Part shown: positions 9,364 to 40,455 of the stretch, in pieces | How the letters are laid out: each line of letters opens with the position of its first letter | How positions within the stretch are numbered: position 1 is the stretch's first letter | DNA from: a virus | Taxonomy: Duplodnaviria; Caudoviricetes | IMG/VR virus record: IMGVR_UViG_3300044646_000320 | Coordinates: 1 to 49,325 of that record | Reading direction: 5' to 3' (one strand) | Length of the DNA: 49,325 nucleotides | Position numbers and translations under genes: made by a program | Notes under the pieces: model-generated | What the model saw: only the letters and a program-made list of their open reading frames with translations | What the model was told of the DNA's origin: nothing | The model's database searches: none

Positions 9364-9623
9364 TGCCGCTCAGAGCGCCACAGCAGAGCCTGAAGGCTTG
9401 GACCAAGCAGAAGTGGCGCACCAAGTCTGGCAAGCCCTCTACGCAAGGCTCAGAGGCCACTGGAGAGCGATACCTGCCGGAGAGCGCCATCAAGTCGCTC
9501 TCTGCATCAGAGTACGCTGCAACGACCAAGGCGAAGCGTGAAGGTACTCGCAAGGGCAAGCAATTCGTGGCACAACCGAAGAGCATCGCCAAGAAGACTG
9601 CGAGACACAGGAGCACCAAGTAA
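9363..9623 (+). CDS. Small basic protein (DUF5872-like, C-terminal part)
   Basis: QQSLKAWTKQKWRTKSG...GERYLP..AIKSLS..EYAATT.AKR.G...GKQFV; TGATG coupling. Confidence 0.75.
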   Translation: MPLRAPQQSLKAWTKQKWRTKSGKPSTQGSEATGERYLPESAIKSLSASEYAATTKAKREGTRKGKQFVAQPKSIAKKTARHRSTK

Positions 9624-10297
9624 TGGCCGTTGTAGTCCCGGATCTGTCAGAACTCTTCGAGGAAGCCTACGAGAGGGCTGGACTTGAGATGCGCTCAGGC
9701 TACGACCTGAAGACGATCAGGCGCAGCCTCAACATCCTCACGCTGGAGTGGCAGAACCGTGGCCTCAATCTCTTCACTATCGAATCTGGTACGCAGGCTC
9801 TTTCGTACGGCACTGCCACTTACACCCTTCCGGCAGACACAATCGACCTCATCGAGCATCAACTACGCACCGGAAGTGGAACCTCCCAGACAGACACTGC
9901 CCTTGAGAGAATCAGTGTATCTACTTACGCGCAGCAGACCAACAAAAACACTCAAGGAAGACCCACACAGATCTACATCCAGCGACTAGCCACCGAGACC
10001 AAGGCTACGCTCTGGCCTGTGCCAGACAACACGATGTCCTACACTCTGGTCTACTACAGGCTGAAGGGGATCGATGGTCTGGCTTCCGGCATCTCTGGCT
10101 CTGCCGCGATTCCTCCGCGCTTTGTGCCAGCTCTGGTTGCTGGTCTGGCCTATCAGATCGCGATGAAGAAGCCTGATGCAGCTCCTCGCATCGACCTCCT
10201 CAAGTCGTCCTATGAAGAGCAGTTCTCTCTGGCCGCTGGAGAGGATCAGGAGCGAGCATCTGTGCAGTTCTCTCCCTTTTATAGCTTTGGTGTATGA
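9623..10297 (+). CDS. Putative head-tail adaptor / tail tubular protein A-like
   Basis: Helical N-terminus, G.P..Y...LWPVPD motif, ALVAGLAY.IA C-terminal helix; position in the neck module. Confidence 0.6.
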   Translation: MAVVVPDLSELFEEAYERAGLEMRSGYDLKTIRRSLNILTLEWQNRGLNLFTIESGTQALSYGTATYTLPADTIDLIEHQLRTGSGTSQTDTALERISVSTYAQQTNKNTQGRPTQIYIQRLATETKATLWPVPDNTMSYTLVYYRLKGIDGLASGISGSAAIPPRFVPALVAGLAYQIAMKKPDAAPRIDLLKSSYEEQFSLAAGEDQERASVQFSPFYSFGV

Positions 10298-10813: not shown

Positions 10814-11461
10814 ATGAACTACTCTCAGCTCGTTCAGTTAATACAAGACTACACTGAGAACACGGAGACCAGCTTCGTCTCCAACATCCCGAACTTTGTG
10901 CGTCAAGCAGAAGAGCGGGTGTTCAGGACGATCATGCTCCCGGAGCTGAGGAAGAACGCCACGACCCCCATCAATCAGGGCGGGCAGTACGTTGCAAGGC
11001 CAACGGACTTCCTGTCTGTGTTCTCGTTTGCCGTCATAGATGGCAGCGGAAACTACAGCTACCTGATCGACAAGGATGTGAACTTCATCAGGGAAGCGTA
11101 CCCGTCATCCTCCACTCAGGGTGTTCCGAAGTACTACGCCCAGTTCGACGGTGATGTCACATCTCCCGTGTCATACGGCAACTTCATCTTGGGTCCGACG
11201 CCGAACGCATCGTACACCGTCGAACTCCACTACTACTACGACCCCCCTTCCATTGTTGACTCTGGAACCTCTTGGCTCGGAGACAACGCTGAAACGGTCC
11301 TTCTGTATGGCGCTCTCATCGAGGCGTACACATACATGAAGGGGGAGGCTGATCTGATCTCCCAGTACACAGAGCGCTATCGTGAGGCTCTGGCGCAACT
11401 TGGTGGTGTCAGCATCAGAAGCGACCGAGATGAATACAGAGACGGAAAACTAACTTCCTGA
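10814..11461 (+). CDS. Putative head-tail adaptor / neck protein
   Basis: MNYSQLVQLIQDY..F...AE.R; G.PKYYA...GPTP..Y.VELHYY; LLYGALIEAY; same architecture as 9623-10297. Confidence 0.6.
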   Translation: MNYSQLVQLIQDYTENTETSFVSNIPNFVRQAEERVFRTIMLPELRKNATTPINQGGQYVARPTDFLSVFSFAVIDGSGNYSYLIDKDVNFIREAYPSSSTQGVPKYYAQFDGDVTSPVSYGNFILGPTPNASYTVELHYYYDPPSIVDSGTSWLGDNAETVLLYGALIEAYTYMKGEADLISQYTERYREALAQLGGVSIRSDRDEYRDGKLTS

Positions 11462-17574: not shown

Positions 17575-18824
17575 CTTGGTATGTAGGAAATAACTCTACC
17601 AACTTCGGTACATACGGCATGAACTTCACGGTTCAGCCGCCAACGGTTGTTGCCGTTACTGGAGTTTCTGGGACTGGAGAGGTTGGCTCCGTAACAGTCA
17701 TCGTCTCTGGGACAGTTGTCCCAGTGACAGGTGTTACTTCCACTGGAGGGGTCGGATCTGTCACCGTTGTTCCGGGGGTCACGGTTCCAGTAACTGGTGT
17801 GTTCGGCACTGGAGAGGTAGGGTCTCCGGTAGTTACTGGAACGTCTCTGACATCAGTAACGGGTGTATTTGCTTCAGGACAGGTTGGTACTGTAAACGTA
17901 ACTGGATCTTCAGTAACATCTGTAACTGGAGTTACTTCTTCTGGTGAAGTTGGATCTGTAACAGTAACTGGAGATGCAAATGTTCAAGTTACTGGTGTAT
18001 TCGCAACTGGGGATGTCGGCACAGTTAACGCTGTAGCGACGACAAATGTTCCTGTTTCTGGCCTTGAGGCAAGCGGTCAGGTTGGATCTGTCCTTGTTTC
18101 AGGGAATGCATTTGTAACTGTAAACGGCCTGTCCGCATCTGGAGAGGTCGGAAGTGTTCAGGTTTCTGGGTCTTCAATCGCACAGGTGAATGGTCTTCAG
18201 GCGTCCGGTCAGGTTGGCGTCGTAACCATTGCGACAGGAACGGGAGTAAACGTACCTGTCACTGGAACTCTTGCCTCCGGTGCGGTTGGCGTTGTCGCGG
18301 TTTCTGGAACATCTGTCACTCAGGTCACTGGTGTATCTGCCACCGGAGAGGTCGGAACTCCCTCTGTAACTGGTGATTCTCTTGTAGTCGTCACGGGCTT
18401 TTCTGCCACGGCAGTTGTTGGATCTGTTGTCGTAGCCGCCAACGCGAACGCCCCTGTAACAGGACTCTCGGCTTCTGGTTCTGTCGGATCAGTGTCTGTG
18501 ACCGGCACTTCTGTCGTGACTCTAACGGGAGTCGAAGGGACAGGAGAGGTTGGCGACGTAACCATCATCGAGGGTCAGGGCGTTACAGTACTCCTTACAG
18601 GGGTGTCTGGATCTGTAATTGCCGGTCAGGTTACGGCTGCGGCTGGTGCTATCGTTTCAGTTCTCGGAGTTCAGGCTACCGCTACATCCAATGGTGTGAT
18701 AACTTGGGGTCCGATCACACCGACGCCCGGCAACTCGTGGACAAATGTAGACCCGGCGACGAGTGACATATGGACTGACATAGATCCTGCTTCGACCAAT
18801 GTGTGGACAGAGATCGCAGCGTGA
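17571..18824 (+). CDS. Val/Gly/Thr/Ser repeat fibre-shaft protein; probably the C-terminal part of the 12511 gene
   Basis: Tandem ~21-aa repeats V.VTGV.A(S/T)G.VG.V.V; Trp-containing C-terminal tail; no SD before its ATG. Confidence 0.7.
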   Translation: MTWYVGNNSTNFGTYGMNFTVQPPTVVAVTGVSGTGEVGSVTVIVSGTVVPVTGVTSTGGVGSVTVVPGVTVPVTGVFGTGEVGSPVVTGTSLTSVTGVFASGQVGTVNVTGSSVTSVTGVTSSGEVGSVTVTGDANVQVTGVFATGDVGTVNAVATTNVPVSGLEASGQVGSVLVSGNAFVTVNGLSASGEVGSVQVSGSSIAQVNGLQASGQVGVVTIATGTGVNVPVTGTLASGAVGVVAVSGTSVTQVTGVSATGEVGTPSVTGDSLVVVTGFSATAVVGSVVVAANANAPVTGLSASGSVGSVSVTGTSVVTLTGVEGTGEVGDVTIIEGQGVTVLLTGVSGSVIAGQVTAAAGAIVSVLGVQATATSNGVITWGPITPTPGNSWTNVDPATSDIWTDIDPASTNVWTEIAA

Positions 18825-25765: not shown

Positions 25766-25780
25766 GCTGTGGAGAGCGAT

Positions 25781-26920
25781 ATGCTTCCGATGCTTCTAAG
25801 CTTCTTGGGTGCCGGTGTTGCCAAGACTGGCGCTCTTGGTGCGTTCCTTGGATCGAATCCACTGATTGCCGCCTCGATTGGAGCTGGCCTCGGCAGGACG
25901 GCTGAAACAGGCAACCTCAGCGAAGGCATCAAGGCGGGGTTCGGATCGTTCGTCGGTGGCACCGCTCTCGGTGCTATCGGCAACGCTCTGGGTGGCGCTG
26001 GAGGGCAGGCTGCTGCAAGTCAGGCAGCAGAAGGTCTGGCTCCTTCCAGAGTCCCTGTCCCTCTCCCACGGCCAACTGCTGGCATGTCTATGCCTTCCAT
26101 TGGGAACGTCTTCCAAGGCGGCATGCAGTTCGGTCAGTCTGCTGCTGGCATTGGATCGACAGTCGGAAGCACGCTCGCTTCTCCGCAGACTCCTCCGAAA
26201 ACTTCAAAGCCATCGACAGGACCGATCCCCGACCTGTCTACCATCAGGCCAATGGAGCGCACACTGCGCAGCCCTCCTGCTGGCTACAGGCCGGGGTACG
26301 ATCCTGAGTTCGACTATGGGATGAGCAACCCATACACCTCCGAGTACTTCACCCGTCGCTATGCAAGCGGAGGAACTGTCCGCAAGCATGTTCCGGGTTA
26401 TGGGACGATCTACCTGCAAGCCGGAGGTATTGCAGACCTCGTTGCGGAACCTGAAGATGCTGTCGAGATCGAGCCCGAGGACGGAGAGTTCGAGATCGAA
26501 GAGTCCCGCACTGCTGGCGGCAATGAGAAGTCTGTCATTGTTGACGCTGTCATGGCGATCAAGAACATGCACCCGCAGCCAGAGGTTGCCCTTGCCACGT
26601 TCGTGCAGAACTATGGAGAGGAATCCCTGCGAGATCTCGTTGATCGAGTTCAGTCCGGTGAGTTCGACAAGACCATCGACAGGTTCTCCAGAGGAGAGAA
26701 AGGCGAGGTCCGTGGACCGGGCGACGGCTCTGGAACTGATGACATGGTTCCCGCCACCATTGACGGACAGCAGGATGTCCTCCTGAGCGATGGAGAGTTT
26801 GTCGTTCGCAAGGATTCAACGGACGCCCTTGAAGATGAGTTCGGATCAGGCTTCATGGACAGGATGAATGGTGCTGGTCCGAAAGCGCCCGAAGTCGTTC
26901 GAGAGATGGTGATGTCGTAG
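25781..26920 (+). CDS. Internal virion / ejection protein
   Basis: Gly/Ala-rich hydrophobic N-terminus; YASGG and LQAGG motifs; C-terminal GPGDG...DD.VPA.......LLSDGEFVV domain; GGAGAG RBS. Confidence 0.65.
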   Translation: MLPMLLSFLGAGVAKTGALGAFLGSNPLIAASIGAGLGRTAETGNLSEGIKAGFGSFVGGTALGAIGNALGGAGGQAAASQAAEGLAPSRVPVPLPRPTAGMSMPSIGNVFQGGMQFGQSAAGIGSTVGSTLASPQTPPKTSKPSTGPIPDLSTIRPMERTLRSPPAGYRPGYDPEFDYGMSNPYTSEYFTRRYASGGTVRKHVPGYGTIYLQAGGIADLVAEPEDAVEIEPEDGEFEIEESRTAGGNEKSVIVDAVMAIKNMHPQPEVALATFVQNYGEESLRDLVDRVQSGEFDKTIDRFSRGEKGEVRGPGDGSGTDDMVPATIDGQQDVLLSDGEFVVRKDSTDALEDEFGSGFMDRMNGAGPKAPEVVREMVMS

Positions 26921-27349
26921 ATGAGTGATGTGAAGGTCTTCGCTGTTCCAGTAGATCTTCTCGACGCAGTCTGGGGAGATGCGGCTCGCTGGCTGAAACC
27001 AGCGGTTGATAGATCCAACGGCAGAAGCTCTATCGGAGACACCTACTCTGACATCGAGTCTGGCAACAGCGTTCTGTGGATGGTCAGGAGGAGCGACGTT
27101 CCGGTTGGCTATTACACCACCAGAGTTGCCCAGTACCCCGGCTGCAAGGCAATGGTGTTGGACTGGATAGGCGGTTCTGGTATAGCATCGTGGATGAACG
27201 ACACCATTGAAGCGATGCGAAAGCATGCTGAACACAACAACTGCACCCACATCGAGTTCACTGGAAGAGAAGGTTGGGGCAGGCTTCTGAAGAACACTGG
27301 CTGGCAGCAAGAGTATGTCTGCTACAGGATGGAGTTGAAGGATGAGTAA
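26921..27349 (+). CDS. GNAT-fold-like virion assembly protein (T7 gp13 / P22 gp14 positional analogue)
   Basis: IGG.G...W......A....C..IE..GR.GW.R.L...GW pattern; lies among the ejection genes. Confidence 0.6.
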   Translation: MSDVKVFAVPVDLLDAVWGDAARWLKPAVDRSNGRSSIGDTYSDIESGNSVLWMVRRSDVPVGYYTTRVAQYPGCKAMVLDWIGGSGIASWMNDTIEAMRKHAEHNNCTHIEFTGREGWGRLLKNTGWQQEYVCYRMELKDE

Positions 27350-29900
27350 GGGCGGCGGAGCGCAGCAGGCAACGCAGACCACCGTTCAGGACGTTCCTGA
27401 ATGGGCGAAGCCTTACTACACCGACATCCTCCAGAAGGCGAAGGCTGCAAGTGAACAGCCCTACGTTCCTTATGAGGGGCCTCGTCTCGCCGAAACTCCA
27501 TACGACATCTCCACCTCTGAGGAGATGATTAGAGGCATTGCCGCCACCCCAACTCCCGGCCTCGCTGATGCCATGGGAACGATGAGCGGCCTTGGGCAGC
27601 AGGCGATGCAGCTCGGACAACAACAGCCGTCTCGATTCTACGAGTCGGGGTTCAGAGGGACGAACGTCTCTCCATATGCTGGGTTTCAGGAGGGCTTCGC
27701 TCGTCCGTACATGGGTTTCTCCCCCACCCTAGGAGAAGAGTACACGGGGTTCGAAGCTGGTGCTGCTCAGCCGTATGCTGGTTTCGAGCAGGCTCAGTTT
27801 GAACAGACCAGAGTTTCTCCCTATGCTGGCTTCAGGGGCACTCAGGTTTCCCCTTATGCCGACTTCAGCATGTACCAGCCGGAAGAGTACTCTACCTTTG
27901 CAGAGAGGGCAGTGTCTCCCTATGCAGGTTTCCAAGCTGGCCAAGCGACCCCTTACGCAGGCTTCGAGGCCTACCAGCCTGAACAGATTGCTTCGTTCAG
28001 GGAGCGTGAAGTCACTCCTTTTGCAGAGTTTCGGCAGGCTGGAGTAACTCCGTACTCTGAGTTCGAAGCGTATGCGCCTGAGCGCTTCACTGGGTTCGAG
28101 GCTGGAGCTGCCACGCCGTTCGCTGGGTTCGAGGAGAGGGGCGCTCAGGAGTTCCAGCTTGACCCATCTCGCCAGTTCACTGGTGCTGAGGTCGAGCAGT
28201 ACATGTCTCCCTACATGGAGAGCGTGGTCGCCCGTCAGGAAGAGGAAGCCATTCGTCAGGCTGAGCGTCAGCGCGCTGGTCGTGCTGCAAGCGCCATTGG
28301 TGCTGGTGCTTTCGGTGGATCTCGTCAGGCAGTTCAGGAGTCCCTCGCAGAGGAGGCGCTTGGTCGTCAGCTTGGAGACATCAGGGCCACTGGTCTTCAG
28401 GCTGCGTATGAACAGGCTGCTCGTCAGTTTGAGTCGGATCGTGCAGCTCAAGCTGCTCTTCAGCAGCAGCGCGTTGCTGAGGCGGCTCGGGTTCAGGGCA
28501 TCTCCACAGAAGAAGCGGCTCGCGTCCAGCAGGCTCGCGCTGCGGAACTCGCTCGCACTCAGGGCATCAGCATCGAAGAGGCAGCGAGGATTCAGCAGGC
28601 CAGAGCGGCAGAGGAAGCGAGATTCCAAGGGATGTCGGCAGAAGAAGCTGCTCGCATCCAGCAGTCAAGGGCAGCAGAACTCGCGAGGGTTCAAGGAATC
28701 GGTGTCGAAGAAGCTGCTCGTGTTCAACAGGCCAGAGCAGCTGAGCTGGCGAGGATTCAGGGCATCTCTGTTGATGAGGCTGCTCGCGTTGAAGCTGCTA
28801 CCGCCAATGAACTTGCTCGCTTCCAGCAGATGGAAGCTGGAGAGTTCGCTCGAATGCAGCAGTCTCAAGCGGCAGAGCTTGCTCGTGTGCAGGGTATCTC
28901 GATTGAAGAAGCCGCTCGTGTACAGCAGAGCAGGGCGGCAGAGCTTGCCAGAACTCAAGGCATCTCCGTCGATGAAGCTGCTCGGGTTCAGGCTGCAACG
29001 GCTGGAGAGAGGGCGCGCATCCAACAGATGGGTGCAAGTGAACTTGCCAGATTGCAGGAGTCTCAGGCCGCTGAGCTAGCCCGCATTCAGGGTATCTCTG
29101 TTGATGAAGCGGCAAGGGTTCAGCAGGCAAGAGCTGCCGAGATCGCTCGGGTTCAAGGCATCACGGTAGATGAAGCCGCCCGTGTTCAGGCTGCAAGGGC
29201 CTCTGAGGAAGCTCGTGTGCAGCAGTCCAGAGCTGCTGAGCTTGCAAGAACCCAAGGCATCAGCATCGATGAAGCTGCCCGCGTACAGGCCGCTACAGCC
29301 GCAGAGAGAGCCCGTCTTCAAGCGATGGACGCAGAGGAGTTCGCACGCGTTCAACAGTCTCAGGCGGCTGAACTGGCGCGTGTGCAGGGCATCTCCATCG
29401 ATGAAGCAGCAAGGGTCCAGCAACTGCAAGCGGCAGAGCTTGCTCGCGTTCAAGGGATTACCGTTGACGAGGCTGCGAGGGTTCAAGCGGCAAGGGCCAC
29501 TGAGGCTGCTCGCGTTCAGGAAGCCAGAGCCAATGAGGCGATGCGCCAGCGTCAGTTCCAGCTCGAAACCATGGGCTTCACGGCAGATCAGGCTCGCGGC
29601 ATAGCCGACCTCGGAGAGAGGGCGAGGGCCGGAGACATTCAGGCGGCACAGCTCCTTGAAGCTCAAGGCCTCGGACAGATGGCAAGAGAGCAGGCAGGGA
29701 TCGACATCGCCTATCAGGACTTCCTGCGTCAGCAGGGATACCCGATCTCCCAGCTCGGTGCCTACTCCCAGTTCATTCGTGGTCTTCCCGTGTCCGACGC
29801 GGGAACGGCAACGACATATATGCCGCAACCCAGCCCATTCCAGCAGGCTCTCGGCGCTGGTATCTCCGCATACGGTCTCTATAGGGGTCTTCAGGGATGA
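27342..29900 (+). CDS. Internal virion / DNA-ejection protein with two mirror-ordered repeat arrays
   Basis: MSKGGG..Q.T....VPEW.KPY N-terminus; YMSPY...GAFGGSR core; C-terminal PSPFQQALGAGI; two repeat arrays. Confidence 0.75.
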   Translation: MSKGGGAQQATQTTVQDVPEWAKPYYTDILQKAKAASEQPYVPYEGPRLAETPYDISTSEEMIRGIAATPTPGLADAMGTMSGLGQQAMQLGQQQPSRFYESGFRGTNVSPYAGFQEGFARPYMGFSPTLGEEYTGFEAGAAQPYAGFEQAQFEQTRVSPYAGFRGTQVSPYADFSMYQPEEYSTFAERAVSPYAGFQAGQATPYAGFEAYQPEQIASFREREVTPFAEFRQAGVTPYSEFEAYAPERFTGFEAGAATPFAGFEERGAQEFQLDPSRQFTGAEVEQYMSPYMESVVARQEEEAIRQAERQRAGRAASAIGAGAFGGSRQAVQESLAEEALGRQLGDIRATGLQAAYEQAARQFESDRAAQAALQQQRVAEAARVQGISTEEAARVQQARAAELARTQGISIEEAARIQQARAAEEARFQGMSAEEAARIQQSRAAELARVQGIGVEEAARVQQARAAELARIQGISVDEAARVEAATANELARFQQMEAGEFARMQQSQAAELARVQGISIEEAARVQQSRAAELARTQGISVDEAARVQAATAGERARIQQMGASELARLQESQAAELARIQGISVDEAARVQQARAAEIARVQGITVDEAARVQAARASEEARVQQSRAAELARTQGISIDEAARVQAATAAERARLQAMDAEEFARVQQSQAAELARVQGISIDEAARVQQLQAAELARVQGITVDEAARVQAARATEAARVQEARANEAMRQRQFQLETMGFTADQARGIADLGERARAGDIQAAQLLEAQGLGQMAREQAGIDIAYQDFLRQQGYPISQLGAYSQFIRGLPVSDAGTATTYMPQPSPFQQALGAGISAYGLYRGLQG
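27633..28172 (+). repeat. Coding tandem repeat A: 11-aa units (xxxP[YF]xxFxxx or xxEx[YFI]xxFxxx) with 5-aa half units
   Basis: aa 98-277 of the 852-aa protein, parsed by hand; 33-nt period. Confidence 0.9.
28461..29549 (+). repeat. Coding tandem repeat B: 22-aa units (QQ.RAAELARV-QGIS.DEAARV) with 11-aa half units
   Basis: aa 374-736, strict 11-residue period, helical composition. Confidence 0.95.
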
Positions 29901-31579
29901 TGAACGTCATCGAAGTGCAGGAAGCTCTCAAGGGCATGCCTATGGAGCAACTCGTTCGCGAGATGCAGATGCCGTCAGGTCAGGCACCTCAGTTCCTCGT
30001 CCTCAGCGAGATCACGCGCCGTAGGGAGATGGAGAAAGAGTACGCCCAGAGACAGCAGGCACCTCAGACAACCGTCGCTCAAGATGCTGTTGCAGCAGCC
30101 GGTGTGCCTCAGGGTGGCATCGCCGACATGGCAAGGGCAATGGCTCCTCGCACCGACATGACGATGAACACCGGAGCCTCCCAAGCTCCTGTTCAGGGGA
30201 TGGCACGAGGCGGGTATGTGCAGAAGATGCAGACCGGCGGTCCCGTCGTCCGTGGCGGTATGATCATCGACAACCCTCCAGAGCAATTCCTCATGGACCC
30301 ATCGATGGTCCAGATGGCATCGATGATGGGGATGACGCCTGAGCAGTACTGGAGGTCTCTCAGCCCAGAGAGCCGCAGGGCTCAACTTGAAATGTACGGT
30401 CAGCAAAGACCGGGGCTTACCCAGAGCCCGTTCCAAGATCGTGCTCTGAGAATGTACGATCCTTCCAGACCCTCCCCGGGGATGGTTGATCTTGATGCTG
30501 CGGCAGGGGCCGAGGCTATCTACAAGCCCATCCGTGAGCGCAGAGAGGCTCAGGCAGGGCGCATGACTGGCTTTGAGCCGGTCGGTGGTGGCCTGAGCGA
30601 TCTCATGGGCAGCTCCTCGTATGCTCGCCCTGAGTTTGCAGGAGAGCTTCCTGAGGCCGGATCTGTGTACGATAGGCCCATGACGGCAGAAGACCTTCTC
30701 GCCGCCTCTGCTGGGCCTGCTGCGCAGGTTCTTTCTCCACCCGCAACCACTCCAGAAACAACGAGTGCTCCAAGATACCCCGGATGGGGAGCCGATCAAA
30801 CTGTAGCTCCGTATAGTTCTCTCAGAAACTTTTTCTTCCCCGGTGGGGAGGGAGATGGCTATCAAGAATCTGCGGAAGCTATGTCATCTCTACCTCCAAG
30901 CGCCGTCGAAGAGCCTGCGCTTGAGCAGCCGGGGATGACATCAGGTACGCCTCTATCTGCTGCTGGACCCGGCGGTATCGATGCGCTCATGCCGCCTGCT
31001 GATGCTGCGCCCGTCGTCACGCCAGAAGCTCCAGAGGAAGCCCCAGATGTTGCGCGCGATACCGGTGGGGCTGGCGGCGCTGGAGGCGCTGGAGGCATCG
31101 CAGCCGCCATGTCCCCTCTCGAAACAGAGCTGTCCAGCATTCTCCAGCGCAGGGAGCGGCAGGCAGAGCAGGACAAGTGGCTTGCTCTTGCTCAGGCAGG
31201 GATGACCCTCATGTCTTCGAGGGAACCGAACATTGCCGGTGCAATTGGAGAGGCTGGTCTTGTCGGACTTGAGCAGTTCAGGTCGGCAAGGGATCAGTAC
31301 GAAAAGGATCGCCTGCAACTCATGACGGCTCAGGAGCAGCTCAGAGGTGCTCGTGTTGCTGCTGGTGCGCGCGCATCTGCTGCACAAAAGCGACCGTCAT
31401 TAAAGCCTTCTGACATCTCTACATACTATCAAAGGAGAGCTGATATACTGAAACAGATGTCAGAATCTTTTGATGAAGAATATAAAGAACTTCTTCGTCG
31501 AGAATTGATAAAACTAGAGATGGACTTCCGTGCTTCATCTGGATCTGTTTTTGACGCAGCAGACACCGGGGAAGGCTGA
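29897..31579 (+). CDS. Internal virion / ejection protein
   Basis: P.FLVLSEI.RR N-terminus; MARGGYVQKMQTGG; Pro/Ala low-complexity middle; LAQAG..LM...IAGAIGEAG amphipathic C-terminal part. Confidence 0.65.
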   Translation: MMNVIEVQEALKGMPMEQLVREMQMPSGQAPQFLVLSEITRRREMEKEYAQRQQAPQTTVAQDAVAAAGVPQGGIADMARAMAPRTDMTMNTGASQAPVQGMARGGYVQKMQTGGPVVRGGMIIDNPPEQFLMDPSMVQMASMMGMTPEQYWRSLSPESRRAQLEMYGQQRPGLTQSPFQDRALRMYDPSRPSPGMVDLDAAAGAEAIYKPIRERREAQAGRMTGFEPVGGGLSDLMGSSSYARPEFAGELPEAGSVYDRPMTAEDLLAASAGPAAQVLSPPATTPETTSAPRYPGWGADQTVAPYSSLRNFFFPGGEGDGYQESAEAMSSLPPSAVEEPALEQPGMTSGTPLSAAGPGGIDALMPPADAAPVVTPEAPEEAPDVARDTGGAGGAGGAGGIAAAMSPLETELSSILQRRERQAEQDKWLALAQAGMTLMSSREPNIAGAIGEAGLVGLEQFRSARDQYEKDRLQLMTAQEQLRGARVAAGARASAAQKRPSLKPSDISTYYQRRADILKQMSESFDEEYKELLRRELIKLEMDFRASSGSVFDAADTGEG

Positions 31580-31583
31580 CATG

Positions 31584-31641
31584 TAGACTATTGGCATGAG
31601 GTGGGTTACACTCTCCGCAGCACTACGGAGATCGCCTCATG
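31584..31641 (+). promoter_or_regulatory. Sigma70-like promoter and RBS-sequestering hairpin for the giant gene
   Basis: TAGACT-N17-TACACT (31584-31612); CATGAGGTG/CGCCTCATG and TCTCCG/CGGAGA pairings cover the SD and ATG. Confidence 0.55.
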
Positions 31642-34600
31642 GCCGTCATATACGTCCCCGGCCCGCTTAGCGGGCAGCAGTACGCCGTAAACATCGCAGG
31701 GGACGTACCGACCCCGGCAGAGCAAGCTCGGATCGATCAGTATATCTCCCAGCAGGAAGCTGCCTTCCAGTCGCAGTACGAGTCTATGTTCGGCTCTGTG
31801 GGCGCTGAACAGCAACCAGCCCCTGAAGACACCACGGCATTCGGTAGAGGCATCGACCAAGGTGTTGCCTCCCTCATGAGAGCTTATGGCTCTGCCGTTG
31901 AGGGTGTCGGAAGGACAACCGGCATTGAGACGCTTCAGCAGTATGGTGCTGATGTCGCTGCGAGAAGGTCAGAAGAGCTTGAACGTCTCGCTGAAGCCGC
32001 CGCCCTTGAGAAAGAGCGTGAAGCTCAGGGCGTTGTTGGTGGCGCGGCAACCTACGTCGGAGAGATCGCAGGTCAATCAGCTCCGCAGACAGCCGTTTCT
32101 CTCGCTGGTGGTATCGCCGGAGCGAAGGCTGGTGCTGCTGTTGGCGCATTCGGTGGCCCGGTTGGCGCAGCCGTAGGCAGCGTGATCGGCGGTCTCGGAG
32201 GTGCTGCTCTTGCATCTCTCCCGTACTTCTACGGCGACTACAGGGAGCAGCAGAAAGAAGCTGACGTTGAGGCAGGTCGTCCTGTTGAGGTGAGCGAGGG
32301 AGCTGCTGCACTGGCCGCTGTGCCCGCTTCTGTTCTCGATGGTGTGCTCTCTGCTGTTGGAGCGAAGTACGGTGCCAACGTCCTGAAGAACGCGGCGAAG
32401 GGCGGATTGTTCACGAGGGCGGCTCGCGGAGCTGCCGGTGGTGTTGCCGTCGAAGTACCGACCGAAATCGGTCAGGAGCTGCTTGGCATCGTACAGGCTG
32501 GCGAAGATCCCCTGAGTGACAACGCGATCAAGCGATACGGAGAGGCTGCACTTGGTGCCGCTGTCCTTGGTGGTGGTATTGGCGCTGTTGGTGGTGCCGC
32601 CGTCACTGGACGCAAAGCAGAAGAAGAACGCAAGAAGCGAGAACTCGACGAGGACATGGAAGAACTCGCCGCTCGTGGCGAGCAGTACATCCAGAATGCA
32701 AGGCAGAGCAGATCGAAGGAAGTTGCGGAGAGGGTCGTGTCTCCGCAGCCTGATCTTCCTATGCTTCCATCTCCTGTTGAACCGGCTCGCACCACGCCGC
32801 AGGAAGAAACATCCCTGCGTGGTAGGGCGGGCATGGAGGCCATCACCCCCACGCGCCCAGTTCTCCTGACAGATCTCCCCCTCGAAGAGAGAGTCGCCAT
32901 TTCTCGCGCCCGTGAGAGCGCAGGCAGAGAGGCATCTCCAGAGACAACGCTGGACGAGATTCAGGCTGTTGTCGGCACGGCTGCATCAGACAGGGAGGCC
33001 AAGAAGCAGAAGCCCATCACTGGTGGAGTTGCTCGCTTCGGACCTGTCGAGAACAAGACTTTCACGCAAGAACAGTACGATAGGGCTGTCCAACAGGTTA
33101 AGGCTGACAAGGGCGTCAGCTTCCCGAAGATCCAGAAGGCCATCAGAGATGTCACCAAGAAGACTGTACCGAATACAGTCGTTCGGGACATCAGGGACGA
33201 GATGGTCCGTCGCGGTGTTGTCAGGGCTGACACCAAGTCGCGCACCGGCTACACGCTTGAGCCCGTCGCCAAGACAGAGACAATCGAAACAAGCCTCAGG
33301 AGAGAGATCGATACCCTGAACAAGGAGATCGACCGCTCGCAGAAGGATCGCACCAACCTTGTCGAAGAGGTTCGCAGGGTAGAGCAGACTGGAAAGAACT
33401 CTGCTGGAAAGAAGGCAAGTGCCGCCGACTACAACCAGAGGCTCGACACGCTCGACGCATCTATTGGTGCTGCAAAGGCTCGCGTTGCAGCAGCAGAGGT
33501 CGAGATCAAGAACGCCAAGGATGCTGGGCGCATACCTTCGGTAGAGGCTGCTGCTCTTGAGTCCACGAAGGTCAGGGCACCTGTAGAGGCTGGCACCGTA
33601 GAGTCAGTCCAGCAGCGCATGGATGCCATCAGCCAGAGCATCAGTGCTTATGACCAGCAGATCTCTGATGCGGAGAAAGCCGCCGCCAATCTCCGCAAGC
33701 AGCAGAAAAAAGTTCAATTGAACAATGCGCAGAAGGCGCAGCTTCAGCAGTACGAGACCACGATAGCGAACCTCAGGAAGCTTCGAGAGACTGCCGCTGC
33801 CCGTATCAAGAACCCTTCTGCTGTTGTTCAGGCTGAGAAGGAAAGGCAGAACGCCGCTCAGGCTAGGTACAACTCTGCTCTCATCACAGAGCCGACCAAC
33901 TACACCCCATCATTCGACGCTCAGCAGCAGAAGGTCTTTGGAGCCCTCAGGAAGCGTCTGGACAATCTCGGTCTCAAGGATGTCAGGCTTGAGGGTTCTC
34001 AGGTCATGCTGGCCAGAGATCAATCCGGCAAGCCCATTGGCGTTGCAGAGGGCAAGTACAACCCCACCAAGAAGATCATCAGCCTGTCTATGGGCATCTA
34101 CAAGCCGGGCATGTCGAGTCAGGAATTGTTCGATTCGATCTCTGGCGTGATGAACCACGAGGTGATCCACGCACTTCGACTCATGAACGTGTTCAAGGAG
34201 AAGGAGTGGAATACCCTCACGAACTATGCCCGCAATCGCAGGTACGTTGCCATCAAGCAGGGCAAGCCTACAGAGCGCAGCTACACCTACGCAGAGCGCG
34301 CAAGGGCGATGGGTTACGATGATGGCGTCATCGATGAAGAGTCTGTGGCAGAGCTGTTCAGGGACTATCTGGACGGCAAGACCACCGTCAAAGGGCCTCA
34401 GAGAAAGTTCTTCGAACGGCTGAAGGCATTCTTCAAGAGCCTCATCGGTGTGCATGTCGATTCTGGTTTCGACTCACCGGAGAAGATCTTCGAGGACATC
34501 AGGTTCGGTCGCATCGGCGCTCGTGAGCGCGCTCCTGTCGAAGAGCCTGTAGTCAGGGAATCTCGTGCTGCCGCACAACAGGCGACGATGGACCCTGACT

Positions 34601-37600
34601 TCATGAAGTGGGCCTCCGAGCCAGAGGGGAAGAGGGTCGTAACGGATGATCAGGGGGCACCTGTCGTCTATTACACAGGGACTTCGAAGGACAAAGACTT
34701 TGCTGAGTTCAACGTCAGCCGACACGGTGGATGGTTCACTACCAACCCTGACGAGGCGAGTTCTTACGCCCTTGAGAACGACAGCATGGGCTTCCAGAGA
34801 GATGGCTGGAACATCATCAAGACAAACACTGCTTCCCGTGTAATTCCTGCTTTCATCAGGGTGGCAAACCCATACCGTGGGCCAAAGCCTGAAAGCGTGA
34901 TGCTGAAGGATAACTACAAGAAAGCTCAGACTGAGTGGTTCGACACGCTGCGCGCTCAGGGCTACGATTCTTGGATGCCGAAAGACACGCCGGGCCTTCT
35001 CGTTGTTCTCGGAGATCCACAGCAGGTGAAGTCTGTCTTCGCTCGTGGCGGCGTCGGCAAGAAGACCATGAGCCGTTTCTCCAACGTTCCGATCAGCCCC
35101 AGACTCAAGGCTCTTTCTGTTATTGACAGGATCGATAGTGACGGAAACTTCAGGGATGTCGCCCCGAGGAACAAGAAAGGTAAACGAATTGCAAATGTTA
35201 ACAAGGAAGACGCAGTCCGCATGCTTCAAGCGGATAGAGGTAACTTTGTATTCGACCTGAATGATCCTAACTCTGCTGACGATATCGCCACCATCATGGC
35301 TGCTGAGGCGGAGACTGCTCTCGCCGGAGATACAAGCGCTCTTGGATGGTATGACAGGCTGGTCTCCCTGTCGAAGAGGGTTGTGTCTATCCTTCATCCA
35401 GAAATCTTGGTGGACAGAGACGCTGCGCATGCCTTTGACTACGCCACTGCCGTGGCATCGAACGGTTTGTCTGTGAAGGACAACTACATCCTTGCCAACA
35501 AGCAGTATGAGAACTGGAAGAAGACAGGGTACTTTATAGAGGGCAGTGAAGGAACTTCCGGCAAGCAAGGCGTTTCGATGGAGAGCGCCTTCAAGGCATA
35601 CAACGACATGAAGCGCCCTGTGGAAAGGGGCGGTCTTGGCATGACAGATAGTGAGATCATTGATTTCCTGTCATCCAGAATGACTGTTGGCGACCTCAGA
35701 AAGAACGAAGTTGTTCAGAGGCTTGGTATCAATGTTGATGCCAAGGAAAAAGCTGGAACAGTCATCAACGGTTCCTACATCATTGGACCGAAGATTGGTC
35801 AGGGCTTCTATCAAAACCTGCGCGGCAACTTCGATCAGTTGACGATGGATCGCTGGTGGATGCGGTTCTTCAACAGGATCACCGGCAATCCGTTCAAAAC
35901 TTACGGAGAAAACACAATCAACAACGGAATCAACCGTCTTCGCGACACGATGGTAGATCCGTCTGATGTGCCAATGATCCTTCAGGCTATGAAGAATATT
36001 GATGCAGATATTCTTACAGATGAAGTTGTTGGTCAGCTATCAATAGAGATCGATAAACTCTATCAGAGAGCATATGCTGCCGCTCCAAAGGGTGATAAGC
36101 CTGTCAAGACTAACGTGTTCTTGGCAGCTAATGCCTTGAGACCGAAGATCGAAGGGGAACTTGAAGAATCCCCGAGGAATGCAACAGACCGCGACTTCAT
36201 GAGGGCAGTAACGCGGCTTGCTGTAGACAAGCTTGCAAGGGCTACCAATGTCCGTCTGGACATGGCTGACTTCCAAGCACTGATGTGGTACTGGGAGAAG
36301 AGGCTCTGGCGCTCTCTCGGCATCCGTCAAGGTCGCGGCGAAGACAACGACTATGTAGACGGCGCAATAGAACTTCTCAGGAAACAAGGGGTACCAGACA
36401 GTGAAATCCTCCAAGCACTCCCCGACAGTGAACGACAGCGGCTCGATACTGGACCAGATACCGGAAGAGATGAGGATGAAGTTCCTTCAGGAGTTGGTGG
36501 AAGACTGGAGGAAAAAGACCGCATTGCAGCAGAAGGAAGGGACGCCTCCCAACGAGGAAACTCTCCAATCGACAGGAGGTACTCGGTCGTCCCGGGACGA
36601 GGAGTCGGAGGACTCGGAACTCGGGAAGCTGCGGGTCGCTCGCTGGCGGAACCAGAACAAGGGCTTGCTCTCCCGCCGCTAGAGCCACTGCCGGGAGCGC
36701 CCCGTGTCGAGGGCTTTACCGGACCAGACCCCAACCTTGTAAGGGTTGCAGAGGGCTACGCGAAGAGCATCGGTCTGAATCTTCGTCGTCAGTCTGAATA
36801 CGTCGATGTCGATCCAGACAGAACTGCGCGCATTGCTGCGGCGTACGATGCAATGCCTCATGCTCCGCAAGACCCGAAGGTCAAGGAAGCATACCAGAAC
36901 CTGATCCGTCAGACGCTGGCACAGTACAGTGCGCTGGCTGATGATGGGTACCGTTTCTGGTTCACCGACCTGTCCCGCGCAAACAACGAGGAGTATCTGT
37001 CATCTCCTTGGAATGCCATGAGAGACATCAGGGCGAACAAGAGAATGGGCGTCTTCCCGACGCTTGAAGGGTTCGGATCTGGGGCAACTGAACTCAACGT
37101 CGAAGACAACCCCATGCTTGAGGACACTGGCCTTCGTTGGCCGGTCGGCTCTCCTGACAGCGAGCAGAAAGCTCCAGTCCTTGCAAACGACCTGTTCCGT
37201 GCCGTTCACGACGCATTCGGTCATGGTCTGGAAGGCTCTGGCTTCCGCGCTCGTGGAGAAGAGAACGCTTGGCAGGCACATGTACGTCTCTTCAACGGGT
37301 CTGCTGTTGGCGCCATCACATCGGAGACGAGGGGTCAGAACTCATGGCTCAACTACGGTCCCTATGGTGATGCCAACCGCTCTGCGAAGGTGGAAGACAC
37401 TGTCTTCGCTGATCAGAAGACTGGCCTCATGCCGTCGTGGACTTGGGAAGAGGGCAGGGCAGGGGACATGCCGCAGGAAACACCTGCTGCATCCAATCCC
37501 CCCACTCAACTCCTGCGCCGCTCAATGGTTCCTGTGCGCAACTCTGTTGCGGCAAATGCCCAGCGTCAGACGGCAAGGAAGCAGACAGGCGTCATCTACT

Positions 37601-40455
37601 CCAAGGCTGCTGACGTTATCGCAGCGGGCCTCAAGCTGCGCGGTTACGGGGTAGAGGAGCAGAAGGCGAAGCGCATTGCCGACGACATCGTCAAGAAGTT
37701 CCAAGACGGGATGATCCCTGTCGGTCGCATGATCGATGAGCTTCGGGCCAACGGCCTGAACATCACCGACGCGATGGACACATACATGCAGGAGGAACTC
37801 TACCACGGCGTCGTTGGTGAAAGGGTCGAGCAGGCGCAGACGAACATGTATCGTCCCCTGATTGATCTTGTCGGCAAGCTCAACGTCACCGATCAGGCCA
37901 AGCAGCAACTCATCTCCGTTTCCAATGGAGCTGCTGCCGGTCGTGGCTTTGCTTCCTACGCCTTCGACGACACCCGCAGCAATGCACTCTCGATGGCTGA
38001 TATCTATCTCTATGCCAGCCATGCAAAGGAGAGGAACGAGTACATTCGCAGCATCGATCCTGAGAACGAGTCAGGGTCTGGCATGAGCGATGCCGAGGCG
38101 GATGCAATCCTGTCGTGGTTCTCAAACAGCTCCTACGCCAACACGGTCAACCAGATCAGGGACGCAGCTCAGAGGATCGTGAAGTACACCAATGAGGTTC
38201 GCCTCGATGGGGGACTGATCCCGAAAGACTTCTTCGAGGTCACAGACCCAGAGACCGGAGAGACGATTGAGGTTCCCCAGTACGACAACTACGTCCCTCT
38301 GAGGGGCAAGAGAGACCCCTCTGGAGAGCTTGTCGATGAGCAGGCCACTGGCCCTTACCGCTCCCCCATGTATGGCGCTCGCCGCCGCGAGGATAGGCGC
38401 TCTCTGGGTCGCTACGACTACGCCGACAACATCATCCCGAACCTGCTCGTCCAGAACCAGAACGCCATCGTCAGAGCCGAGCGCAACAAGGTCGGCCAGT
38501 CCTTCCTGAATCTGCTTCGCTCGGACCCGTCGAAGACCAAGGCGTATGGCCGAATCCTGACACCGGGAGACATGAGGCCTGCGCAGCGCCGCGTCCTGAT
38601 CGAGCGCAAGAGGAAGGATGGAACGACCGTCCAGAAGGTTCAGACCATTCTAGATCCGAACTTCCGTCAGGAGCCCGACATCTTCGTCGTGAAGGAGGAC
38701 GGCAAGGAGGTCATCGTCAAGCTTGAGAACGACGCCATCGCCTCTGCGCTCAAGGGCGACATCTCCGCCACTCACAGCAACAAGATGGTCAGGGTTCTTT
38801 CGACCATCAACCGCTACCTTGCGAGCATCAATACCTCGCTGAACCCCGCGTTCTTCATCACCAACATGTTCCGCGATCTACAGACTGCGGGCGTGAACGT
38901 GGCGCAGTACGAGATCGATGGCCTGACGACGAAGATCGTCAAGGATCTTCCATCGTCTTTGCGCGGCATCAAGCAGTCCATTCGCAATGGCGACAACTCA
39001 TCTCAGTGGGCGCAGATCTACAGGGACTTCGTCAAGAACGGTGGCCAGAACTCTCTGAACCAAGTGAACACTGTCGCTGACCAGATGGCGAACATCAGCG
39101 GCATCATCGGTGACATCGCAGACAGCGGTATTCGGAAGCAGTTCAACCGCGTGAAGAACGGGTTTGTCGGCAAGGGCGCGATGTCGCTCCTCAACTTTGT
39201 CGAGGACTACAACAGCGTCATCGAGAACGGCATCCGCGTCAGCACATACAAGGCCTTGCTCGACAGGGGCTTCACCCCTCAGAGGGCAGCTCAAGCGGCG
39301 AGGAACATCACCGTCAACTTCTCCAAGGGCGGCGACTACAAGACTTTCATGAACGCGATGTTCCTGTTCTACAACGCATCGCTTCAGGGGTCGTTCGCCA
39401 TGCTGAACGCTGCTCTGCGCTCTCGCCGTGTGCAGATGTTCTGGGCGTCTGCAATCGGCGTAGGCCTGATGCAGGACTACCTGAATGCGATGCTGTCCGA
39501 CGAGGATGATGATGGCGTCAAGCTCTACGACAAGATTCCTCAATATGTGCTTGAGCACAACCTGATCCTGCCAGATCCATTCGGCTTCACGGATCGTTCG
39601 TACATCTCGATCCCCATGCCGTACGGCCTGAACATGGCGCACAACCTCGGTCGATCCATGGGTCGCCTGTCTCGCGGCGCATACGACCCGGGAGAGGCGG
39701 CTGGTAGCATCGTCGGCACTGCCCTCAACGTCATCAACCCCATCGGTGGCACAGAGAGCTTTGCGAACTTCGCTTCACCGACGATTGCCGACCCGTTCGT
39801 AGACATCATGCAGAACGAGAACTTCGCTGGTCAGCCTGTCTACAAGGAGGGCTTCCCGGGAGACAGAACTCCTTCCAGCCAGCTCTACTGGTCAACAACC
39901 AGTGTCCCGTCTGTGTGGCTAGCGAACACCATGAACTCTCTGACTGGCGGAACGACAGAGGTGAAAGGCCTTGTCGATGTGTCTCCAGATCTCATCGATT
40001 TCTGGTTCGAATACCTGACCGGAGGCGTCGGTCGCTTCGTACTGCGCACGGCAGAGACCCCGTTCATGGCATATGACGAAGGCTTCTCCGAGGATGTGGT
40101 CAGGAACCTTCCCATCTTCGGGAAGATCATCGGCACCATCACCACGAGAGAAGACACAGGAGAGTACATCGAGAAGCGCAATCAGGTTCTCACCGCTCTG
40201 GACGAAGTGAAGGCAGCGGTTGAAGAAGGAAACATGGAGAGGCTTGCCGCAGCAAGGGAACGCTTCTCTGATGAGATCAAGGTTTCCGGCGCAGTCAGGG
40301 CAATCGACAATGCAAGGATGAAGCTGTCCCGTCAGATGAGACAGGTCAAAGAGAGCAGGATGCCAGAGGAGCAGAAGCGCATCATCCTTGAAAGGCTGGA
40401 TGATCGCATGCAGCAACTCACTGCTCGCGCCAACAAGATCATGAGAGATCTGTGA
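31639..40455 (+). CDS. Giant polyvalent (ejected) protein: zincin metallopeptidase, ART-like domain, two further enzyme-like domains, LPD38-like C-terminus
   Basis: 2938 aa; NHEVIH zincin motif (~34153) with downstream EE.VAE.F; VYYTGT..F..F....GWFT...ASSYA; WYD...TMDRWWMR...QALMWYWEK; FRAVHDAFGH...GEENAW; N.FRD...NF.KGG...FLFYNAS.QG...IPMPYG. Confidence 0.8.
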   Translation: MAVIYVPGPLSGQQYAVNIAGDVPTPAEQARIDQYISQQEAAFQSQYESMFGSVGAEQQPAPEDTTAFGRGIDQGVASLMRAYGSAVEGVGRTTGIETLQQYGADVAARRSEELERLAEAAALEKEREAQGVVGGAATYVGEIAGQSAPQTAVSLAGGIAGAKAGAAVGAFGGPVGAAVGSVIGGLGGAALASLPYFYGDYREQQKEADVEAGRPVEVSEGAAALAAVPASVLDGVLSAVGAKYGANVLKNAAKGGLFTRAARGAAGGVAVEVPTEIGQELLGIVQAGEDPLSDNAIKRYGEAALGAAVLGGGIGAVGGAAVTGRKAEEERKKRELDEDMEELAARGEQYIQNARQSRSKEVAERVVSPQPDLPMLPSPVEPARTTPQEETSLRGRAGMEAITPTRPVLLTDLPLEERVAISRARESAGREASPETTLDEIQAVVGTAASDREAKKQKPITGGVARFGPVENKTFTQEQYDRAVQQVKADKGVSFPKIQKAIRDVTKKTVPNTVVRDIRDEMVRRGVVRADTKSRTGYTLEPVAKTETIETSLRREIDTLNKEIDRSQKDRTNLVEEVRRVEQTGKNSAGKKASAADYNQRLDTLDASIGAAKARVAAAEVEIKNAKDAGRIPSVEAAALESTKVRAPVEAGTVESVQQRMDAISQSISAYDQQISDAEKAAANLRKQQKKVQLNNAQKAQLQQYETTIANLRKLRETAAARIKNPSAVVQAEKERQNAAQARYNSALITEPTNYTPSFDAQQQKVFGALRKRLDNLGLKDVRLEGSQVMLARDQSGKPIGVAEGKYNPTKKIISLSMGIYKPGMSSQELFDSISGVMNHEVIHALRLMNVFKEKEWNTLTNYARNRRYVAIKQGKPTERSYTYAERARAMGYDDGVIDEESVAELFRDYLDGKTTVKGPQRKFFERLKAFFKSLIGVHVDSGFDSPEKIFEDIRFGRIGARERAPVEEPVVRESRAAAQQATMDPDFMKWASEPEGKRVVTDDQGAPVVYYTGTSKDKDFAEFNVSRHGGWFTTNPDEASSYALENDSMGFQRDGWNIIKTNTASRVIPAFIRVANPYRGPKPESVMLKDNYKKAQTEWFDTLRAQGYDSWMPKDTPGLLVVLGDPQQVKSVFARGGVGKKTMSRFSNVPISPRLKALSVIDRIDSDGNFRDVAPRNKKGKRIANVNKEDAVRMLQADRGNFVFDLNDPNSADDIATIMAAEAETALAGDTSALGWYDRLVSLSKRVVSILHPEILVDRDAAHAFDYATAVASNGLSVKDNYILANKQYENWKKTGYFIEGSEGTSGKQGVSMESAFKAYNDMKRPVERGGLGMTDSEIIDFLSSRMTVGDLRKNEVVQRLGINVDAKEKAGTVINGSYIIGPKIGQGFYQNLRGNFDQLTMDRWWMRFFNRITGNPFKTYGENTINNGINRLRDTMVDPSDVPMILQAMKNIDADILTDEVVGQLSIEIDKLYQRAYAAAPKGDKPVKTNVFLAANALRPKIEGELEESPRNATDRDFMRAVTRLAVDKLARATNVRLDMADFQALMWYWEKRLWRSLGIRQGRGEDNDYVDGAIELLRKQGVPDSEILQALPDSERQRLDTGPDTGRDEDEVPSGVGGRLEEKDRIAAEGRDASQRGNSPIDRRYSVVPGRGVGGLGTREAAGRSLAEPEQGLALPPLEPLPGAPRVEGFTGPDPNLVRVAEGYAKSIGLNLRRQSEYVDVDPDRTARIAAAYDAMPHAPQDPKVKEAYQNLIRQTLAQYSALADDGYRFWFTDLSRANNEEYLSSPWNAMRDIRANKRMGVFPTLEGFGSGATELNVEDNPMLEDTGLRWPVGSPDSEQKAPVLANDLFRAVHDAFGHGLEGSGFRARGEENAWQAHVRLFNGSAVGAITSETRGQNSWLNYGPYGDANRSAKVEDTVFADQKTGLMPSWTWEEGRAGDMPQETPAASNPPTQLLRRSMVPVRNSVAANAQRQTARKQTGVIYSKAADVIAAGLKLRGYGVEEQKAKRIADDIVKKFQDGMIPVGRMIDELRANGLNITDAMDTYMQEELYHGVVGERVEQAQTNMYRPLIDLVGKLNVTDQAKQQLISVSNGAAAGRGFASYAFDDTRSNALSMADIYLYASHAKERNEYIRSIDPENESGSGMSDAEADAILSWFSNSSYANTVNQIRDAAQRIVKYTNEVRLDGGLIPKDFFEVTDPETGETIEVPQYDNYVPLRGKRDPSGELVDEQATGPYRSPMYGARRREDRRSLGRYDYADNIIPNLLVQNQNAIVRAERNKVGQSFLNLLRSDPSKTKAYGRILTPGDMRPAQRRVLIERKRKDGTTVQKVQTILDPNFRQEPDIFVVKEDGKEVIVKLENDAIASALKGDISATHSNKMVRVLSTINRYLASINTSLNPAFFITNMFRDLQTAGVNVAQYEIDGLTTKIVKDLPSSLRGIKQSIRNGDNSSQWAQIYRDFVKNGGQNSLNQVNTVADQMANISGIIGDIADSGIRKQFNRVKNGFVGKGAMSLLNFVEDYNSVIENGIRVSTYKALLDRGFTPQRAAQAARNITVNFSKGGDYKTFMNAMFLFYNASLQGSFAMLNAALRSRRVQMFWASAIGVGLMQDYLNAMLSDEDDDGVKLYDKIPQYVLEHNLILPDPFGFTDRSYISIPMPYGLNMAHNLGRSMGRLSRGAYDPGEAAGSIVGTALNVINPIGGTESFANFASPTIADPFVDIMQNENFAGQPVYKEGFPGDRTPSSQLYWSTTSVPSVWLANTMNSLTGGTTEVKGLVDVSPDLIDFWFEYLTGGVGRFVLRTAETPFMAYDEGFSEDVVRNLPIFGKIIGTITTREDTGEYIEKRNQVLTALDEVKAAVEEGNMERLAAARERFSDEIKVSGAVRAIDNARMKLSRQMRQVKESRMPEEQKRIILERLDDRMQQLTARANKIMRDL

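Follow-up and report, generated by a model that had tools for sequence, protein, structure and literature searches.

How do two non-homologous repeat arrays within one protein come to be ordered as mirror images of each other? The question is raised by an 852-amino-acid (aa) open reading frame (ORF) in the 49,325 nucleotides (nt) of the IMG/VR virus record IMGVR_UViG_3300044646_000320 (Duplodnaviria; Caudoviricetes; positions 1 to 49,325), the whole of which is called the window here. The protein, our query, carries array A before and array B after a conserved core (Table 1). The mirror match between the two arrays is real, family-wide and strongly non-random.

Mirror order in the query and its homologs

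Both arrays were parsed automatically, reading outward from the core, and their binary step types agree in mirror order at 34 of 34 steps. Array A alternates between 6-mers of the form x-P/E-[YF]-x-x-F and 5-mers whose last residue is small; its half units are 5-mers that end in F. The 11-mers of array B have near-invariant R, Q and E, and 15 of them contain a G-I or x-M motif; their period stays in frame through 31 consecutive spacings of 11. Plain 11-mers stand opposite the A steps that end in Phe and opposite the single atypical step, and the G-I or x-M 11-mers stand opposite those A steps whose last residue is small. The first-pass annotation of this DNA, made from the sequence alone, had set 11-aa units of A against 22-aa units of B. 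This basic unit has to be corrected to one 5-6-aa step per 11-mer, but the order match that it described, halves included, is borne out: in larger units array A reads P,E,P,P,E,P,P,E,P,P,h,P,E,P,P,h,h and array B reads I,M,I,I,M,I,I,M,I,I,h,I,M,I,I,h,h, where h is a half unit, and the two orders are identical.

A random order would match with a chance of 1 in 680,680, or 1 in 15,015 without the two terminal halves. These figures overstate the case because each array could be period-3 by itself, and the weight therefore rests on the homologs. A finer correspondence between B units carrying Thr at the third position (the ELART units of the first-pass annotation) and P units starting with Ala holds in the query for three of three such units and for none of the eight other I-type units, but this position pair is not among the strongest couplings across the family.

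From 306 long and 325 short homologs the best 120 of each were taken, together with 13 ORFs from the loci. Of these 253 homologs and the query, three were without the core pattern and 232 passed the anchor filters, giving 230 distinct proteins. The length of the A arm (LA) was taken between an N-terminal anchor, a conserved Arg, and YMxPY, and that of the B arm (LB) between the turn of the core and a C-terminal anchor, a conserved Tyr. Across the 230 proteins LB is approximately 2 x LA + 20, the LA/LB pairs extending from 54/127 to 223/468 in the query; 169 fit this rule within 6 aa and 208 within 17, leaving 22 beyond. Array B ranges from 3 to 34 steps, more than tenfold, among similar phages, and within most homolog groups its length changes by multiples of 11. 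The covariation of A and B expected among homologs sharing the YMSPY/GAFGGSR core is thus observed in arm length: when the proteins are clustered at 80% identity and each of the 50 clusters is represented by its modal form, the Theil slope is 2.0 and r is 0.999. Among contrasts on a tree built from the non-repeat parts, r is 0.76 for the full set of 229, and by increasing branch-length class it rises from 0.34 to 0.86, 0.95 and 0.997, the last class having a slope of 2.01.

The rule extends to two distant subfamilies with other repeat sequences, where the slope is 2.09 (39 proteins, 19 distinct length pairs) and 1.91 (14 proteins, 8 length pairs). In the protein of locus L003, the third of five units is, by eye, atypical on both sides. 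As controls, the length of the C-terminal tail does not track A (rho 0.03), and that of the N-terminal tail tracks B weakly (rho 0.39), which is likely a lineage effect. Ten proteins have an A arm longer by 17 aa with B unchanged; the insert adjoins YMSPY in two of them compared with two short relatives, and we read it as a putative loop at the tip. Separately, one subfamily (L003-L006, L194-L209) carries several hundred low-complexity residues before the conserved N-terminal anchor, unmatched by the C-terminal arm.

Step order and residues were compared in 80 of the 232 proteins, namely those with an intact 11-residue frame, canonical steps, at least 9 steps and equal counts, so that the comparison concerns order and not length. 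Among 55 representatives kept from these, 26 of 910 steps mismatch in mirror register, against 218 of 910 in same-direction order, about 23% after a shift of two steps and 1298 of 5556 when the B arrays of other proteins of equal length are used. A protein's own B partner is better than a foreign one in 270 of 310 comparisons, tied in 15 and worse in 25. The irregular steps sit at differing places between lineages, yet they match, and the 19-step class alone has 10 different B patterns in 17 representatives.

Residue coupling, counted over 263 distinct unit pairs with 300 within-protein shuffles as control, follows the same register. Gly in A faces Ile/Leu in B in 106 of 119 cases, and opposite Thr/Ser stands Val in 73 of 98, Ile/Leu in 3. 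Phe in A faces Arg in 76 of 131 cases and Tyr does so in 11 of 129, while A Pro pairs with Leu/Ile/Met in 208 of 217 and A non-Pro in 13 of 46. The strongest couplings beat all 300 shuffles. The five most coupled B positions lie at 260-360 degrees of the helix, that is on one face, which adjoins invariant Gln and Ala and is opposite invariant Arg and Glu. This logic of size and charge is what contact would give, and physical contact between A and B is, in our judgement, very probable.

Family, relatives and predicted structure

The non-repeat parts of the query match phrog_4287, a family of DNA ejection proteins (E-values in Table 1). The full-length query alone gives no match to it at E 0.001, while 17 of 17 short homologs do (best 6.5e-21). 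A profile of the short members finds a Pag-Yong1 protein (E 4e-52) and gp27 of the Sinorhizobium phage phiM5 (6e-26) in a search scaled to 50,000 sequences, and LUZ24 gp53 matches phrog_4287 at 2e-10 and, by hhalign, the core at 68%. Members of phrog_4287 share a homologous N-terminal part, the YMxPY/GAFGGSR core, the C-terminal part and a place before internal virion genes. Those cultured members that were examined (phiM5 gp27, DB2 gp18, Pag-Yong1 and LUZ24 gp53) differ from the query in having none of these repeat arrays. phiM5 gp27 is annotated as present in the particle proteome and is followed by three internal virion genes; LUZ24 gp53 is annotated as a particle protein. Family membership, gene slot and virion-detected relatives together support the role in DNA ejection suggested by the first-pass annotation, which we consider probable for the query.

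Two of these relatives, phiM5 gp27 (L259 8578-9984) and DB2 gp18 (L261 6887-7792), end in a Peptidase_S74 domain (E 2.7e-11 and E 1e-5) that is absent from the query. In both it stands directly after a Gly-rich hydrophobic stretch similar to that of the query, and both are annotated as tailspikes. The DB virus 2 gene upstream of gp18 (L261 6233-6886) matches the N-terminal part of the family profile at E 2.4e-6, and the family may be split over two genes in this virus. By size and gene order, Pa223 gp56 is probably also of the phrog_4287 type; 10.1101/2025.06.11.659172 proposes it as the outer-membrane channel, predicted as a hollow nonamer.

P22 gp7* (PF25688, phrog_598) shares the gene slot of the query, after a gene-14-like gene and before gp20 and gp16. 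As described in passages of the structure preprint (10.64898/2026.09.03.749273), it forms in infected cells a dodecamer in which each chain is folded back, with residues 90-126 as a fingertip on the tail hub and Gly-rich hydrophobic C-terminal helices in the outer membrane; this bundle makes up the extracellular channel within a trans-envelope conduit of ~50 nm. The query is like it by prediction, in its fold-back chain, conserved tip, paired ends and Gly-rich hydrophobic C-terminal helix. P22 gp7 differs in being 229 aa long, with both arms helical and a gap of ~6 nm to bridge, and the word 'repeat' is absent from the preprint (10.64898/2026.09.03.749273). An Atlas feature score of 0.87 between the two proteins, with 126 shared features, serves as a lead only. 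As an observation apart, the homologs P0007, P0029, P0030 and P0224 have a 25-30-aa N-terminal leader before a Gly-rich start, comparable to the cleaved 20-aa leader of P22 gp7.

An AlphaFold2 monomer of the query (79 alignment rows) has a mean pLDDT (predicted local distance difference test) of 69.5 and a predicted template modelling score (pTM) of 0.33. The ends and the core are confident, with core helices at aa 290-320 and 326-385, and aa 101-270 have pLDDT <50 and no secondary structure. Array B is modelled as helices of 18-19 residues broken at 13 of 15 G-I/x-M steps (11 of 11 I-type, G-I, and 2 of 4 M-type, x-M). The continuous hendecad coiled coil imagined in the first-pass annotation thus gives way, in these monomer models, to a kinked helix, and an oligomer could differ. 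For the C-terminal part the model predicts a long helix reaching about aa 813, followed at aa 832-851 by a hydrophobic, Gly-rich helix that is a candidate membrane anchor. The 15-step homolog P0013 (57 rows), whose alignment is better registered (503 of 620 step pairs in register), gives the same picture, with B broken at 6 of 6 steps. Its model shows the core hairpin and antiparallel chain ends, and aligns end to end with an Smc coiled coil and a chemoreceptor hairpin; VIA-align returns generic hairpins, the best at Z 8.7 with a root-mean-square deviation of 6.8 over 118 residues.

A complex of three A and three B arms of P0013 scores 0.60, against 0.00 for the best of three controls, and is graded weak: of 157 solved complexes 116 reach the mark, as do 2 of 215 mismatched pairs, and at scores up to 0.60 there are only 18 solved complexes together with both mismatched pairs. 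The runs agree in at least 13% of contacts, with partner pLDDT of 79, 22 and 77, array A being at 77-79 in two of the three runs with array B. The structure predictions are split, the monomers leaving array A below 50 and the oligomer lending weak support. Length covariation, order matching, coupling on one face and this weak complex prediction all favour the proposed fold-back of A on B at 1:2. Foldseek against the PDB returned designed repeat proteins as best matches, at template modelling scores (TM) <=0.10, and nothing specific; a BFVD fold search matched only uncharacterised phage proteins, and PDB sequence searches found no relative. Matches of array B to Pfam DUF3853 and to a PHROG scaffolding family were set aside as composition noise, with no passing stretch.

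Weighing possible uses of the mirror-matched arms

With moderate confidence, we favour the view that the query is the first DNA-ejection protein of a short-tailed phage, whose arrays pair as the arms of a fold-back hairpin, probably as the wall of a channel. Once ejected, every chain would fold back at its GAFGGSR core. Array A, as an extended strand, would lie along one face of array B, itself a kinked helix, with one A step of 5-6 residues per 11-residue B step, both with an equal rise of ~1.6 nm. As in P22 gp7, each hairpin would be docked at the tail hub by its core tip and would insert its hydrophobic C-terminal helix into the outer membrane. The extracellular part of the DNA channel would consist of several such hairpins lying next to one another; the extracellular role, the number of chains and their orientation are part of this proposal. 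Length would evolve by duplication in one array and a matching duplication in the other, unmatched forms being short-lived. From residue counts the rod is estimated at ~73 nm in the query (about 490 helical residues) and ~22 nm in its 3-step close relatives. As the length of the 560-aa next gene does not follow array B (rho 0.05 over 59 loci, with crude anchors), an extracellular stand-off appears the likeliest use of such a rod.

Several points weigh against this view. Array A stays below pLDDT 50 in both AlphaFold2 monomers (query and P0013), with a pTM of 0.33. Homology to P22 gp7 was not detected: the short homolog P0136 has no Pfam P22_gp7 match, and hhalign against P22 gp7 gives a probability of 0.6-0.7%, like the reversed control. 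The particle annotations come from relatives, the query phage being uncultured and known from its DNA. The tests of order and residues cover proteins selected for equal counts and canonical steps, and the units are related by descent, so that pair counts are not independent events. A and B do not vary independently between diverged lineages, but 22 of the 230 distinct proteins lie off the length rule by more than 17 aa. Likewise, the paired indels that the first-pass annotation held to be necessary are found between diverged lineages but seldom between near-identical relatives, whose 24 length-changing contrasts have the same sign in 10 and are concordant in 3; strict intolerance of change in a single array is consequently not established. 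Finally, the S74 chaperone in two relatives points to a trimer, which would be too narrow for DNA.

Most unmatched records adjoin a near-identical matched twin. In a clade compared at the DNA level, long forms contain exact repeats of 61-98 nt, so that a collapse of copies in assembly from short reads is a plausible but unproven origin of the unmatched records; P0130 and P0138 look like mosaics of matched neighbours. It is equally possible that they are real, short-lived changes of a single array, some of which must exist as intermediates.

S74 chaperones act on trimers. Because of the relatives bearing this domain, the main rival keeps the pairing of A on B but in a solid trimer of hairpins, with three B helices and three A strands in the grooves. 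It would work as a harpoon or tether, reaching and piercing the outer membrane in the manner of a class I fusion core and leaving transport of the DNA to other proteins. The weak pass of the complex prediction came from 3+3 chains, three copies being the only number modelled. Coronavirus fusion cores offer a parallel, since passages of PMC10893436 describe extended HR2 stretches of S2 packed on a trimer of HR1 helices, and in alphacoronaviruses a 14-residue insertion in HR1 matched in HR2. However, array B lacks a continuous hydrophobic core stripe and the face opposite the coupled one has invariant R and E; a crude pattern search of 204 ORFs of the loci detected no S74-like motif; and the same gene slot holds channels of 9 or 12 chains in DEV and P22, as given in parts of PMC11445570 and 10.64898/2026.09.03.749273. 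We regard the solid trimer as unlikely, though it is the best of the alternatives.

Less likely again is a periplasmic tunnel or a ruler spanning the envelope and matching its thickness, as the first-pass annotation had suggested. It has a model in phiX174 H, which passages of PMC7354561 present as a decameric tube of single helices for DNA, 17 nm long and wall-spanning, with Q/R/E-rich helical repeats of 11 residues and a length that matters. The repeat pattern of H (E-hydrophobic-small-x-hydrophobic-Q; PMC7354561 Table 1) resembles array B by eye only, and the query keeps the 11-residue period in frame in the manner of H with a predicted helix that is not continuous. The shortest relatives, at ~22 nm, would also be periplasm-sized. 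phiX174 is a single-stranded DNA phage and H consists of single helices, with no second repeat array in those passages. Against the tunnel or ruler, the query gene stands in the gp7 slot and a separate gene in the gp20 slot follows, and the number of B steps varies too widely among similar phages. The estimated ~73 nm exceeds the whole ~50-nm P22 channel, and the extracellular stand-off therefore fits better than the envelope ruler.

Array A could instead be a built-in chaperone that covers B stepwise only as long as the protein is in the capsid or moving through the tail, and that comes off upon B assembly. Ejection proteins do change fold between virion and cell, as parts of PMC11445570 report, and array B without A has a pLDDT of 41 in the controls of the complex prediction. 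The antiparallel ends and core hairpin of the models nonetheless imply a final structure in which A spans the length of B anyway, and this idea is quite improbable. The absence of any contact, the mirror match stemming from a shared duplication process or a nucleic-acid structure, is the least credible of all: tandem duplication enlarges both arrays, and some records are unmatched, but there is no DNA complementarity of note between the arrays (periods 33 and 66 nt), the order is reversed, the residue pairs are complementary in size, and the slope of ~2 holds with three unrelated repeat alphabets.

Paired indels in the two arms of a hairpin are not new. Chemoreceptor signalling hairpins have symmetric heptad indels between length classes. 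The names 36H and 40H of such classes appear in passages of 10.1101/339275. With the coronavirus case, these correct the first-pass annotation, which knew of no described precedent. Yet in both systems the indels are few, 1:1 between helices and in non-repetitive arms, unlike the two non-homologous arrays of the query with their 1:2 pairing, step-type code and 3 to 34 steps in the family. The kind of protein is thus known, a podophage ejection protein; as for its architecture, searches of the open-access literature turned up no account of non-homologous arrays that pair with each other in mirror order.

Beyond the channel that we favour, a bolder version is tentative and somewhat more likely wrong than right. 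It would see a two-alphabet zipper, in which each aromatic strand step is read by an 11-residue helical step through a code of residue sizes. Reach would be tuned from ~20 to >70 nm in 1.6-nm steps across host surface layers, and the 1:2 design would have arisen with at least three unrelated repeat sequences.

The gene block and the meaning of mirror-matched arms

Table 1. Features of the query gene and its neighbours in the window
Feature	Coordinates	Strand	Basis
852-aa ORF, likely first ejection protein (phrog_4287 family)	27342..29900	+	Non-repeat parts match phrog_4287
N-terminal part, aa 1-94, conserved, three predicted helices	27342..27623	+	pLDDT 70-96 over aa 21-100; phrog_4287 E 0.062
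Array A, aa 95-279, 34 steps of 5 or 6 aa	27624..28178	+	Automatic parse
Core, aa 280-359, conserved: YMxPY, helix, GAFGGSR turn, helix	28179..28418	+	Invariant columns; phrog_4287 E 8.8e-5
Array B, aa 360-733, 34 in-frame 11-mers	28419..29540	+	Automatic parse
C-terminal part, aa 734-852, conserved	29541..29897	+	AlphaFold2 model; phrog_4287 E 1.9e-5
142-aa upstream gene, slot of P22 gene 14 / IVPA	26921..27349	+	phrog_7642 E 2e-4
560-aa downstream gene, inferred slot of P22 gp20 (periplasmic tunnel)	29897..31579	+	
2938-aa polyvalent protein, slot of P22 gp16 / T7 gp16	31639..40455	+	LPD38, ART-PolyVal, phrog_6958 virion structural protein

The window holds the gene set of a short-tailed phage, with an SU10-type portal, capsid, two SU10-adaptor genes, tail spike and endolysin. 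Portal, capsid, adaptors and tail spike lie 5' of the query gene and the 560-aa and 2938-aa genes 3' of it. The query gene heads the block of internal virion genes, an order shared by phiM5 and LUZ24. The 142-aa upstream gene, whose putative function is taken from its slot, matches LUZ24 gp54 weakly (E 0.022). No Pfam or PHROG match was found for the 560-aa gene, and in the polyvalent protein ART-PolyVal covers aa 1003-1134 and LPD38 aa 2630-2810.

The sequencing runs that contain most of this DNA are lake-water metagenomes, and no RNA run is among the listed holders. An assembly artefact in the window is ruled out: the longest exact DNA repeat within the query gene is 20 nt, positions 27510-30100 are covered with zero differences by a single contig of run X1, possibly the source run, and pieces from three other studies agree with the sequence, with no joint listed. 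A DNA or RNA mirror between the arrays is likewise ruled out, the 37 inverted repeats detected being all <=21 nt and imperfect, and the 25 listed ones scattered.

Other genes of the window deserve mention. The two SU10-adaptor genes (9623-10297 and 10814-11461) recall the dual tube-A arrangement of phiGT1 described in parts of PMC10386132. The tail block includes a 1687-aa Thr/Ser/Gly-rich repeat protein (12511-17574) with no Pfam or PHROG match, and a 417-aa protein made almost entirely of Val/Thr/Gly repeats (17571-18824) with no family match. The 383-aa gene at 25769-26920 has no Pfam or PHROG match either. Its G-P-G-D-G region, at the C-terminal end, is similar by eye to the gene that lies just upstream of the Pag-Yong1 homolog (L260 7104-7988). 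A motif small/basic-x-G-G-x-[IV], often paired, recurs by eye in this 383-aa protein and in the 560-aa neighbour (29897-31579), as well as in the extensions or C-termini of several homologs (ORFs of L003-L006, L020 and L021); it is possibly a cleavage or packaging signal for proteins of the ejection block.

In short-tailed phages, the bridging from tail to membrane is known only for short channels such as that of P22. If the channel that we favour is correct, a reach varying about threefold through paired modules would be a measurable and tunable trait, and the thickness of the host surface layer would become predictable from sequence. The family offers a natural case of two non-homologous repeat arrays kept in register through a readable code, and a clean system for the study of compensatory evolution, in which one array changes first and the other follows. 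Protein rods or tubes with a chosen length could also be designed on its model.

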